From positions 992,001-1,056,000 of the forward strand of contig CAWBAT010000005.1 of NCBI GenBank assembly GCA_963786955.1: a stretch of 64,000 bases of DNA, written 5' to 3'. The stretch's first letter is position 1. Each line of letters opens with the position of its first letter. The notes beneath the pieces are model-generated. The model was given only the letters and a program-made list of their open reading frames with translations. It ran no database searches and had not been told where the DNA came from. The position numbers and the translations under genes were made by a program. This document shows, one piece after another, positions 45,881-48,315 of this stretch. Origin of the DNA: an uncultured Acidimicrobiia bacterium. GTDB lineage: Bacteria; Acidobacteriota; Terriglobia; Versatilivoradales; Versatilivoraceae.

Positions 45881-46069
45881 CTAGCTGATTCCCTCTGGCG
45901 GTGGTAGCTCACGGTCACCGCGCCCTCCGAAGTAAAGATAGAGGGTCGGTAGCACGATCAAGATGATCAGGGTTGCCGAAACTAGGCCTCCAATAATTAC
46001 CACCGCCAGCGGCTTCTGAACCTCCGATCCAATTCCTTTTGAAAATGCCATAGGAAGCAAACCCAGCAT
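45881..46069 (-). pseudogene. 3' fragment of a CusA/CzcA-type RND efflux pump
   Basis: LGLLPMAFSKGIGSEVQKPLAVVIIGGLVSATL...VLPTLY matches the last two TM helices only; the rest of the ~1000-aa gene is absent. Confidence 0.85.
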
Positions 46070-46179
46070 GAATTGAGCTTCCCTCGTCAACCACTTACCT
46101 CAAAAGAAATAGTCACAAGCAGTCCCGAAAACCCCTAAGTACTGCTATTCGTAATTGCGGTGATATATCTTAAGATAGG

Positions 46180-46204
46180 CGCCGCGTGGGGTCACGCGGC
46201 CTAC
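46180..46204 (-). repeat. GTAG-family REP palindrome (intact copy)
   Basis: Minus strand GTAG-GCCGCGTG-ACCC-CACGCGGC-G. Confidence 0.85.
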
Positions 46205-46211
46205 AAAGTTG

Positions 46212-46972
46212 ATAGGGGTAGGAAGAGCCGATTCATTTCGGCCCCTCCCCCCTCCGAACCGGACAGGCGGATCTCCCGCATCCGGCTCTCCAGTTGGTGG
46301 TTTTACCTGAAACAGGATTGACCGACTTCCCCAAGACGGTGTCCAGAGTTCCGCTTGGTTCAGCAAAGTAAGTTGTTTTACTTCCATCCTCCGAGGAGGA
46401 TCGTCAACATGCGTAACTTCCAGAGCGACCGTTTCCTCTTCCTTGCAACCGAAGAGGCTTCTCCGACTCGCTTAGCCCAAGGGCACTCACGCCGGTTAGG
46501 TTTAGATCCCACTTTCCGTTACTCATCCACCTTCCTGCGTCCCTTCGCTCCATCCCCGTTACGAGACTTCGCCGCTACTATGGACGCTCTGACTCCTGTC
46601 AGCTCGGCTCTTCGGTCCTCTACCAGCAACATGAACACCGTCTCTGTTCGCCAACAGGTCTCCCTGATTCACGTGTCTGACCTTCCGATCCCTCCGTCTC
46701 CAACCACCCCCCAGGCCCTCGACGTCGATTTCGCACGCTACCCCTCATCGCATCGAGTTTCCCACTCTCGTGGGTCTAGGTTTCACCTTTGCCTAGCAGG
46801 CTCACCGACTCTGACAGGCCGAATCGAGTTTCTTATCGTACGGATGGATCGTTCACCTCCTGTTGCTCCCCACCCCGCCTCGCGGCGACGCAGTTACAGT
46901 TGGTTACAGGCCGGAGAGCGTATACCTGAAGAGGACTTCCACCTCTCCAATCAAACACGCTTTCAGGCGCAC
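46212..46972 (-). ncRNA. ORF-less group II intron (IIB-like), 761 nt
   Basis: 5' end GTGCGCC; DV at 46256-46288 GAGCCGGATGCGGGAGATCCGCCTGTCCGGTTC with AGC triad; DVI with bulged A (46219) and AT end; DIII-like GGAGTCAGAGCGTCCATAGTAGCGGCGAAG...GCGAAGGGACGC; DIV only ~235 nt with no RT ORF. Confidence 0.93.
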
Positions 46973-46995
46973 TAGGCCGGGTCACCGACCCGGCG
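46973..46995 (+). repeat. GTAG-family REP palindrome interrupted by the intron between G (46211) and TAG (46973)
   Basis: Removing the intron restores G|TAG-GCCGGGTC-ACC-GACCCGGC-G. Confidence 0.85.
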
Positions 46996-47182: not shown

Positions 47183-47422
47183 CTATTCAATGGTCTTGTC
47201 AATGGTCTTGCCTGGATTTGAGGTCTTGGAAAGGCGAATCAGCGAATCGATAGCTCGTACTGCCTCATGGTGACTGGCATAGACGATTCCGAGTTCTTTA
47301 CTCGAAACAATTCTCGGCCCCTCGTAGAGTTCTTCGGAGACAATGAAACCGCCGTGCTTAGTCTGGATCTCAAATTTGATGCGATCATATCTTCGGGTCA
47401 AATGAGTATCTTGTACGTTCAT
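47183..47422 (-). CDS. Small hypothetical protein (79 aa)
   Basis: ATG 47422 MNVQDTHLTRRYDRIKFEI...; 3' part of ORF 47183..47758, whose 5' part overlaps the sigma factor gene. Confidence 0.45.
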   Translation of the reverse strand: MNVQDTHLTRRYDRIKFEIQTKHGGFIVSEELYEGPRIVSSKELGIVYASHHEAVRAIDSLIRLSKTSNPGKTIDKTIE

Positions 47423-47671
47423 GGTCGCTTTTTTAACCTGAGTTGAAGATTCTCCTGAAGTGGCTCGAACCAGCCAGCGGATAGATAATAGAAAGAATAA
47501 AACTTGCCTACTCGCCCAGCAACTGCAAATTCGTTTTTGCAGGTCCACCTTGTCGCTGGTAAAAAGCTGTTTAGCGATTCCAATCGAGGCCCGGCATATA
47601 ATGAGTCCGAAACAATAACAGAAAAGGTCCTGATTTTGAGGAACTTTTCTGCTTTCTGAAATGAATAAAGA

Positions 47672-48315
47672 ATGTTGACCGAATTCGAGTCCTTGACTGG
47701 AAAGATGGCACCCTCTAATCCACTGAGCCCAGAAGTCGAATTGCTCCAGCGCATGCATAAGGGTGACGAGGACGCGTTTTTGGTCTTGTATCGGCGCTGG
47801 CAGGGGGGGATCTTTCGTTTTGCTCTACAAATGAGCGGAAGCGAATCGATCGCAGAAGATGTGACACAAGAAGTTTTTTTGACTTTGATGAGAGAGCCGG
47901 CTCGATTTGATCCAAATCGTGGGGCGCTCTCTTCTTACCTCTACGGTATTTCCAGGAACTTAGTCCTGCAAGCTTTGCATAAAGGACGCCTGCTCATCCC
48001 TTTAGAAGAAGAGGGGGACTTTCATGAAATCCTCGTCGACCCTACGACTTGCTTGACGATTTGACACGACAGGAAGGCATTGCAGCCGTTCGTCAAGCCG
48101 TGCTGGCGCTTCCGCCTCATTACCGGGAGGCTGTTGTGCTCTGTGATTTGGAGGAATTCAGCTACGAGGAGGCCGCAGAAGTCAGTGAGTGTGCGGTGGG
48201 AACGATCCGCTCTCGACTGAATCGAGCTCATAAATTACTGCTGGAGCGACTCAAGAAACTGAAAGGGGTCCACTCTGGCCCCACAGACCATCGAGTGGTA
48301 AGGAGTTTGGTATGA
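47672..48315 (+). CDS. ECF RNA polymerase sigma factor, frameshift near 48050
   Basis: GDEDAFLVLYRR, AEDVTQEVFL, region 4 LPPHYREAVVLCDLEEFSYEEAA...GTIRSRLNRA. Confidence 0.92.

Follow-up and report, generated by a model that had tools for sequence, protein, structure and literature searches.

We analyzed a window of 64,000 nucleotides (nt) from an uncultured bacterium of the Versatilivoraceae (Acidobacteriota; GenBank assembly GCA_963786955.1, contig CAWBAT010000005.1, positions 992,001 to 1,056,000). Its minus strand carries, at window positions 46212-46972, an intact-looking group II intron of 761 nt that has no open reading frame (ORF). We found that this intron interrupts one of many inverted pairs of repetitive extragenic palindromes (REPs) in its genome and that it belongs to a family whose members mostly sit at the foot of DNA hairpins. 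A sequence-only reading of the stretch had proposed a complete ribozyme within these limits, with GUGCG and AU ends, domain V and a branch-point domain VI. Both the observation and this first anatomy hold; mechanistically, the intron follows a variant of a strategy that is already known.

Anatomy and boundaries of the intron

With a slash marking the junction, the 5' junction on the minus strand reads ...GGCCTA/GTGCG (between 46973 and 46972) and the 3' junction ...CCCCTAT/C (between 46212 and 46211). The intron therefore begins with GUGCG (46972-46968) and ends with AU (46213-46212), as expected of the group II termini GUGYG and AY, which are kept in 44 of 44 full copies of the family, bar one GCGCG and one AC. 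The Rfam model RF00029 (group II domains V and VI) matches 46212-46290 on the minus strand over its whole length with 55.4 bits, against a gathering score of 40, and places the bulged branch-point A of domain VI at 46219, 8 nt from the intron 3' end. The check suggested earlier, a search with RF00029 and the D1-D4 models, thus succeeded for the former but not for the latter: RF02001 and RF01998 match parts of domains I and III at 21.5 and 22.1 bits, both below their gathering scores, and these alignments served only to guide placement of the Id3 hairpin. Among 57 family ribozymes, 175 alignment columns reach 93% conservation or more; the window intron deviates at none of them, and the ribozyme is therefore intact as far as its sequence can tell. 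A blastx comparison of intron positions 401-700 with the family reverse transcriptase gave no match below E 0.017. The REP hairpin of the 5' exon folds as DNA at -11.1 kcal/mol, a value reached by 2 of 200 shuffles.

The features of the locus are listed below (EBS, exon-binding site; IBS, intron-binding site; bp, base pairs).

46973-46995, minus strand: 5' exon REP, an 8-bp GC hairpin with a 3-nt loop and the tail CTA
46973-46977, minus strand: IBS1, GCCUA, the last five bases of the 5' exon
46212-46972, minus strand: ORF-less group II intron, GUGCG...AU, 761 nt, from Rfam matches and family conservation
46791-46795, minus strand: EBS1, UAGGC, intron positions 178-182, in the terminal loop of an Id3-type hairpin, from blind covariation
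46704, minus strand: EBS3, G, intron position 269, from covariation with exon position +1
46289-46549, minus strand: domain IV of the ORF-less form, with covarying structure, colinear with the ORF start in the ORF-carrying copy L031
46256-46288, minus strand: domain V, 33 nt long, from RF00029 and the family alignment; AGC triad, distal stem of 4 bp, loop of 5 nt (GAGAU)
46212-46255, minus strand: domain VI, whose bulged A lies at 46219 and which closes the intron with AU, from the RF00029 alignment; its CCUACCCCUAU end is conserved family-wide
46211, minus strand: IBS3, C, the first base of the 3' exon, which completes the CTAC (complement of GTAG) of the 5' REP
46205-46210: spacer of 6 nt between IBS3 and the GTAG-REP of the 3' exon
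46180-46204, minus strand: GTAG-REP of the 3' exon, the second, inverted member of the REP doublet

The REP doublet as a target in the source genome

Excision of the intron had been predicted to restore an inverted pair of GTAG-REPs, and the source genome (G000) bears this out. We joined the 30 nt before the intron to the 35 nt after it and searched the same genome with this 65-nt ligated-exon query. There are 71 uninterrupted REP-doublet matches across the ligated junction; 10 are 100% identical over the 65 nt, 19 are full length at 95% identity or better, and 56 ungapped matches retain GCCTA/C. Thus, one of the many copies of this REP doublet is split by the intron, whose ends lie where they were first placed. 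The expectation that tabulated flanks would repeat GCCTA/C is fulfilled by these uninterrupted doublets but not by the intron copies, whose tails vary. That the target belongs to a multicopy REP family is likewise confirmed: G000 contains about 499 perfect hairpins headed by GTAG, which fall into several subfamilies and include inverted pairs, as REP/REPIN-like elements do.

The arrangement can be compared with that in a congener, G002. The orthologous locus there (C18:91584-93068) joins both flanks with neither doublet nor intron, so the doublet is an insertion in the window lineage, and a paralogous doublet of the same congener (C13:299826-299961) runs unbroken exactly over the predicted junction. 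Only one full copy of the intron is present in G000, and it occupies 1 of 72 suitable doublets. The genome also has 21 matches to Y1_Tnp (PF01797), a count in which REP-associated tyrosine transposases (RAYTs) and TnpA of IS200/IS605 are taken alike. As a plain consequence of its position, the intron would remove the RAYT recognition end of this one REP.

The only other trace of the intron in G000 is a 167-nt remnant (G000:C4:568526-568692), internally deleted such that intron positions 1-104 are joined to 683-761. It directly follows a different GTAG REP, after the full CTAC instead of CTA, and its flank would match the EBS1 GTAGC, the variant found in a 96%-identical copy in G011.

The targeting code

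How is the insertion site specified? We assembled 94 distinct 5' junctions from three sources: 61 related genomes, species genomes searched with the intron protein of a relative that carries the ORF (the best 80 of 571 confirmed relatives were used), and a metagenome scan. In 58 copies, 5' exon positions -1 to -20 were then compared blindly with each variable column of the first 470 intron bases. The five strongest signals pair exon -1 to -5 with intron 178 to 182 (z 8.5-10.5; 54-57 of 57 paired), and the next best signal has a z of 4.7. The sequence-only reading had named plus-strand positions 46791-46795, the complement of GCCUA, as EBS1, and this segment is the sole partner of the 5' exon in the scan. 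In the window copy it matches IBS1 at 5/5 positions. The EBS1-IBS1 duplex is 5 bp long, with five covarying pairs that each reach a z of at least 8.5, and the scan of 58 copies revealed no covariation for exon -6 to -20 that would mark an EBS2. When EBS1 loops were located by regular expression (n = 58), 49 paired 5/5 with their own exon, 7 paired 4/5 and 2 paired at fewer positions. On the other side, the sole partner detected for the 3' exon is intron position 269 (window 46704) with exon +1; this EBS3-IBS3 contact is paired in 43 of 44 copies, as C:G, A:U or U:A (z 8.1).

The hairpin just 5' of IBS1, which had been suggested as a possible further determinant, is common to most of the family. 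A hairpin of -6 kcal/mol or better that ends no more than 7 nt from the insertion point precedes 83 of 94 junctions, compared with 17.8% of 820 positions drawn at random from these loci; hairpin energies have a median of -9.65 kcal/mol at junctions and of -3.8 kcal/mol in controls. The address is a hairpin, then five bases, then one base.

Whether UAGGC lies in the proposed loop had been left to folding. The single-sequence fold of the window's EBS1 region (46780-46800) gives instead a competing hairpin in which AGGC of EBS1 pairs with a nearby upstream GCCU (z -0.93, not significant), but family covariation supports the loop. Since the fold pairs AGGC with GCCU, the loop assignment rests on that covariation and on the RF02001 alignment. 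The small competing hairpin might lower the availability of EBS1.

Targets other than GTAG repeats

Pairing of EBS1 with the GTAG end had been offered as the rule of the lineage, and this proves too narrow. Of the 94 junctions, 23 have the tail CTA and 8 the tail CTAC, together 31 and far above the roughly 2% expected for any fixed 3-4-mer, but the remaining 63 have other tails, among them CGCTC, CTCCA, GAATC and GGGTG, with matching EBS1s. Insertion inside the GTAG tetranucleotide is likewise true of the window copy and the other 22 CTA junctions, but not of the 8 copies that follow a complete CTAC. EBS1 is therefore not tied to GTAG, and the targeting rule is wider.

Four families of target hairpins were counted, all of them multicopy in the family genomes, and two have no GTAG head. 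The TGGAGC-headed element is present in 34, 20 and 11 copies in G010, G016 and G000, compared with 1, 2 and 0 for a reversed control pattern. The GTAGGGAACG-type target has 16, 17 and 6 copies and the GAGCGC-type target 22, 15 and 12, in both cases against 0 controls. None of the 3' exons inspected in the family contains a T-run, so the target hairpins are not classical intrinsic terminators. We also observed that two sets of ORF-carrying copies, each within a single genome (L064, L065 and L090; L074, L076 and L060), share the hairpin tail together with 10-20 nt of 3' exon; the targets of these copies are therefore larger composite repeats rather than lone hairpins.

Classification of the intron

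All 54 domain V strings extracted from the family begin with GAGCC, which holds the AGC triad, and have 33 nt, a 4-bp distal stem and a 5-nt loop, of the form GA(G/A)AN family-wide. ORF-carrying relatives are about 1.88 kb long and encode a 448-residue reverse transcriptase/maturase. TIGR04416 matches this protein with 407 bits over residues 64-404 of 448, which leaves no room for an endonuclease domain. We took L031 as the ORF-carrying reference and not L008, in which the reverse-transcriptase ORF is split over several frames. Its 1879-nt intron minus the 1347-nt ORF gives a ribozyme of 532 nt. Among solved structures, the relative's protein scores highest with 7uim (238 bits) and 6ar1 (GsI-IIC, 217 bits), followed by LtrA (153 bits) and the 6me0 maturase/reverse transcriptase (150 bits). 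This nearness to IIC is a weak argument because the PDB holds no class E/F protein.

Published work is cited here by PubMed Central number. IIC introns are marked by a CGC triad, a domain V distal stem that is 2 bp shorter and an EBS1 of 3-4 bp (PMC1702495). None of these is found in the family, which resembles IIC in having no EBS2/IBS2 and a stem-loop in the 5' exon. Classes E and F are IIB-like introns of 450-700 nt without the ORF, in which a 5-nt domain V loop replaces the 4-nt loop (PMC3753933). Here the 5-nt loop, the 532-nt ribozyme and the endonuclease-less protein all agree, but the EBS2-IBS2 duplex does not, as there is no second covarying block. Class F and g1 proteins form the outgroup of class C in PMC4748821. 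The description of the window intron as IIB-like fits its domain V, which is of the IIB/E/F type and not IIC. Provisionally, we group the family with relatives of class C, as a lineage whose catalytic architecture resembles E/F and whose targeting resembles IIC. In a plasmid collection, a distant blastn search returned only short pieces of domain V or I, covering at most 11% of the query.

The ORF-less form and its recurrence

The window intron had been read as a non-autonomous element of a recurring lineage, and such a lineage exists. Full-length ORF-less copies of 708-763 nt are present in 8 of 31 family genomes, each at a different site; seven of these genomes were found with a domain IV query and the eighth, G016, by full-length search. 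The copies are 73-96% identical to the window copy and span at least 7 genera of one family. A further 16 ORF-less copies come from metagenome contigs picked by their domain IV motif, of which 14 were measured (738-781 nt), 13 have both ends usable and 9 have a readable EBS1 and flank. Six of the nine pair 5/5, one has 4 pairs plus a G-U pair and two have 3 pairs plus a G-U pair. Across the ORF-less form, the EBS1s TAGGC, GAGCG, TGGGA, GATTC, CACCC, TGGAA, TAGCG, GTAGA and AGTCC pair 5/5 with their own flanks, TGGAG makes 3 Watson-Crick and 2 G-U pairs, and GTAGC in L004 pairs at 4/5. Repeated independent insertions with matching EBS1 and IBS1 are the mark of a mobile non-autonomous element. 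G002 and G010 hold both the ORF-less and the ORF-carrying form, and G006, G008, G011, G016 and G019 have partial matches alongside their ORF-less copy.

What does the ORF-less form retain in place of the ORF? The consensus structure of its domain IV, built from 19 of 20 copies, has 41 pairs, and compensatory changes occur in 22 of these. Of the alignment cells, 93.8% are paired, compared with 26-44% when the partners are slid, and none of 500 shuffles reaches the observed values. This domain IV aligns colinearly with the initial ~140 nt of the L031 ORF. It thus retains the beginning of the lost ORF, which is probably the protein-binding DIVa platform. The covariation suggests selection to retain that platform, from which mobilization in trans would follow.

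On the metagenome contig L153 (positions 227-1077) two ORF-less introns lie in tandem, the second beginning exactly at the end of the first; the domain VI hairpin and ...CTAT tail of the first may have served as the target of the second. Among the relatives, L055 and L056/L057 belong to the same family or genus by placement and bear record titles of different phyla (Acidobacteria; Acidimicrobiia), so that such titles say little reliable about the organism.

Helper protein, expression and state of the window copy

A tblastn search for a cognate intron protein in G000 found none: the best matches have 46% identity (partial) and 39%, compared with at least 58% for the family proteins listed in the scan of relatives. 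The 39% matches fall in two group II introns that are unrelated to the family. These lie side by side where the window's own contig begins (G000:C5:270-5075), with two further domain V/VI matches of 46.6 bits each and reverse-transcriptase pieces 36-46% identical to the family protein.

The EBS1 and EBS3 of the window copy match its own flanks perfectly. Most likely, this copy is an intact-looking stranded insertion or a recent arrival without a helper; we regard it as probably stranded because the genome holds no cognate protein. The proposal that REPs provide a safe landing pad stands as far as the multicopy target is concerned, but active use in G000 is not demonstrated, as a cognate protein is missing and a single doublet is occupied.

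For RNA evidence, three metatranscriptomes and one metagenome were compared with the window. Contigs at least 90% alike cover parts of the family ribozyme and not the junction at the window locus, so splicing is neither supported nor excluded. Two joints that connect 46205-46210 to 46973 carry extra or different letters at a depth of 3.4-4, and may be uninterrupted REP doublets of other organisms. Contigs from sediment metatranscriptomes pile up on 46236-46303 and 46848-46915, within domain V and the first 100 nt of the intron, with a summed word depth of up to ~3500. This pile-up probably reflects many related introns in those communities, DNA carry-over being another possible source.

Upstream, a minus-strand ORF of unknown family (47183-47758) ends about 210 nt before the intron, and read-through transcription from it is possible. 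Just downstream of the REP doublet lies a 69-residue ORF (45881-46090, minus strand) that matches only the last ~50 residues of AcrB/AcrD/AcrF (profile positions 972-1020 of 1021, E 9e-15). The upstream rest of such a gene is absent, and the ORF looks like an isolated gene fragment. Apparently duplicated composition rows at window 45200 and 47200 yielded no repeat and are a coincidence.

Explanations for the insertion

Altogether, we consider it probable that the window intron is a non-autonomous derivative of a hairpin-targeting group II retroelement, reverse-spliced at the foot of a REP hairpin inside a doublet. We infer that reverse splicing took place at the 3' foot of the hairpin and used single-stranded or structured DNA as its substrate. 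Recognition of the target would depend on a GC-rich DNA hairpin, which stands where IBS2 lies in other introns, together with five bases paired with EBS1 and one base paired with EBS3. REP-type repeats would act as landing pads because they offer tens to hundreds of such sites per genome, outside genes, and EBS1 would drift toward whichever hairpin tail abounds in the host. The 0.75-kb form would have lost its reverse-transcriptase ORF and kept a structured domain IV, and for splicing and movement it would depend on a protein that relatives with the ORF provide in trans. In G000 itself the element appears to be inactive at present.

Several observations weigh against this account or parts of it. 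With regard to the targeting code, 11 of the 94 junctions fall below the hairpin criterion, 9 of 58 EBS1 loops pair at fewer than five positions, and the window's EBS1 can pair locally with the upstream GCCU that normally forms the Id3 stem. There is no direct sign of splicing or mobility, as the metatranscriptome contigs miss the junction of this locus. The occupancy of 1 in 72 doublets fits inactivity and equally a very recent arrival, and the G000 assembly is 93% complete, such that a protein-coding copy could be unassembled. The metagenome set of ORF-less copies is biased by its selection through the domain IV motif. Finally, the ribozyme tree (FastTree, midpoint-rooted) interleaves ORF-less and ORF-carrying copies. 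A single origin of the ORF-less form is therefore not established, one old ORF-less lineage is unproven, and recurrent deletion or recombination are alternatives.

What else could have placed an intron here? If the lineage were IIB-like and its EBS1 specialized on the conserved GTAG end, the tetranucleotide itself would be the address. The window copy agrees, as UAGGC pairs with GCCUA and splits G/TAG, both G000 copies sit at GTAG REPs, and the excess of CTA and CTAC tails points the same way. However, two thirds of the junctions, 63 of 94, have other tails that each fit their own EBS1, GAGCGC- and TGGAGC-headed multicopy targets are used in the same bacterial family, and the insertion point alternates between the end of CTA and the end of CTAC, the hairpin and not GTAG being the constant. 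We therefore think this explanation unlikely. The constant hairpin could also point to an ordinary class C (IIC) intron that aims at intrinsic terminators and hit a REP through its terminator-like stem-loop. For IIC introns, insertion behind terminators "or other inverted repeats" is on record (PMC1702495), and the absent EBS2, the stem-loop in the 5' exon, the intergenic insertion and the ranking of the relatives' protein next to IIC reverse transcriptases (7uim, 6ar1) would suit them. The triad is AGC and not CGC, however, EBS1 has 5 bp and not 3-4, the inspected 3' exons have no T-run, and the protein ranking counts for little in a PDB without class E/F proteins; we judge this quite unlikely.

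It is least credible, and in our view very improbable, that the intron is an immobile fossil, and that any change in copy number is due to a RAYT that moves the REP doublet as DNA with the intron as cargo. Such a dead passenger would be expected between two inverted REPs, which is where the window copy lies, as do L220 and L163, and the 21 Y1_Tnp matches and the missing cognate protein would fit. But the intron has a single full copy in G000, its ribozyme shows no decay, and the EBS1s of other genomes differ and fit different flanks, a pattern left by reverse splicing rather than by cut-and-paste of DNA. Beyond the retroelement derivative that we favor, a more far-reaching proposal is that the ORF-less form is a long-lived, trans-mobilized lineage similar to a short interspersed element (SINE), whose own conserved and covarying domain IV platform would serve a borrowed reverse transcriptase, and which spreads between genera, is specialized on REP/REPIN elements, parasitizes both autonomous introns and the REP system, and combines an IIB/E/F-type ribozyme with IIC-style targeting by a 5-bp guide. 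We regard this as tentative, and somewhat more doubtful than not.

Relation to known systems

The sequence-only reading knew of no account of such targeting, which overstated its novelty. IIC introns insert after terminators "or other inverted repeats" (PMC1702495; PMC4424553). The IIC-related types g6, U1 and U2 insert directly behind predicted terminators, some of which are I-shaped and lack a U tail (Miura et al. 2022, PMC8919778). Targeting of hairpins is thus already known beyond class C in the strict sense. REPs are known targets of ISPpu9/10, ISPa11 and ISPsy8 (Tobes and Pareja 2006, PMC1525189), and a table in the same paper gives a REP association for 2 of the 9 copies of a group II intron in Pseudomonas putida. 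In the literature, supplementary files aside, we met with no account in which REP hairpins regularly serve an intron family as target, nor with one of a recurrent ORF-less lineage of this kind; the supplements of PMC1525189 and PMC8919778 may list relevant insertion sites. The main texts of two REP surveys (PMC3733652 and PMC12306157) do not contain the word "intron".

A hairpin plus a short guide is the way in which IIC introns reach safe sites, and how the hairpin is read and how far this strategy extends beyond class C are still being worked out. The family offers a natural data set for these questions: about 94 independent insertions with a clean 5+1 code, no EBS2 and a non-IIC domain V. 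It indicates that REP-type repeats can be RNA-guided landing pads, as they are for some insertion sequences (IS), and so joins two kinds of selfish DNA. Bacterial ORF-less introns are described as rare and usually found beside related proteins, one without a related protein in its genome (C.te.I1) being exceptional (PMC4424553). A recurring ORF-less form with a structured domain IV runs counter to the view of a rare, immobile leftover (PMC4424553). The ORF-less form is also a candidate for a compact, trans-driven targeting RNA.

Of the known systems, IIC introns (B.h.I1, O.i.I1, E.r.I1) are closest in targeting. Like the family, they use a 5'-exon hairpin in place of IBS2, a short IBS1, a one-base IBS3 and no EBS2; they have an endonuclease-less protein, insert between genes after stem-loops and include the nearest solved reverse transcriptases (PMC1702495; PMC4424553). 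They differ in domain V, where the family combines AGC with a 4-bp distal stem capped by a 5-nt loop and IIC introns have CGC and a stem 2 bp shorter, and in EBS1, with 5 bp against 3-4 (PMC1702495). Moreover, the hairpins used by the family are REP-type repeats without T-runs, whereas IIC introns use intrinsic terminators or attC sites.

ORF-less group II introns of Thermosynechococcus are reportedly mobilized or spliced in trans. Trans-mobilized ORF-less introns are, like the form described here, ORF deletion derivatives that coexist with ORF-carrying relatives. In the family, unlike in those cases, one architecture recurs over at least 7 genera and 16 metagenome contigs at 73-96% identity, and the window's genome has no related protein.

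Classes E and F (Ge.ur.I1, Pe.th.I2, So.us.I2) share with the family the 5-nt domain V loop, an IIB-like EBS3 and the lack of an endonuclease (PMC3753933; PMC3552965), and the family ribozyme of ~530 nt lies within the published 450-700 nt (PMC3753933). Class F has been reported from Acidobacteria, Geobacter and a planctomycete (PMC3753933; PMC3552965). However, published structures of these introns have what looks like an EBS2-IBS2 duplex, and the introns are regarded as homing elements (PMC3753933; PMC3552965), whereas the family shows no EBS2 covariation and has a hairpin in that place. Types g6, U1 and U2 resemble the family in having non-class-C proteins close to class C and in inserting after stem-loops; the available passages of PMC8919778 measure distance to terminators, and do not deal with REPs, EBS1 covariation or ORF-less lineages. 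REP-targeting IS likewise exploit REPs as safe multicopy targets. Their transposase reads REP DNA (PMC1525189), whereas the family is guided by RNA, through EBS1 and EBS3, and by the shape of the hairpin.

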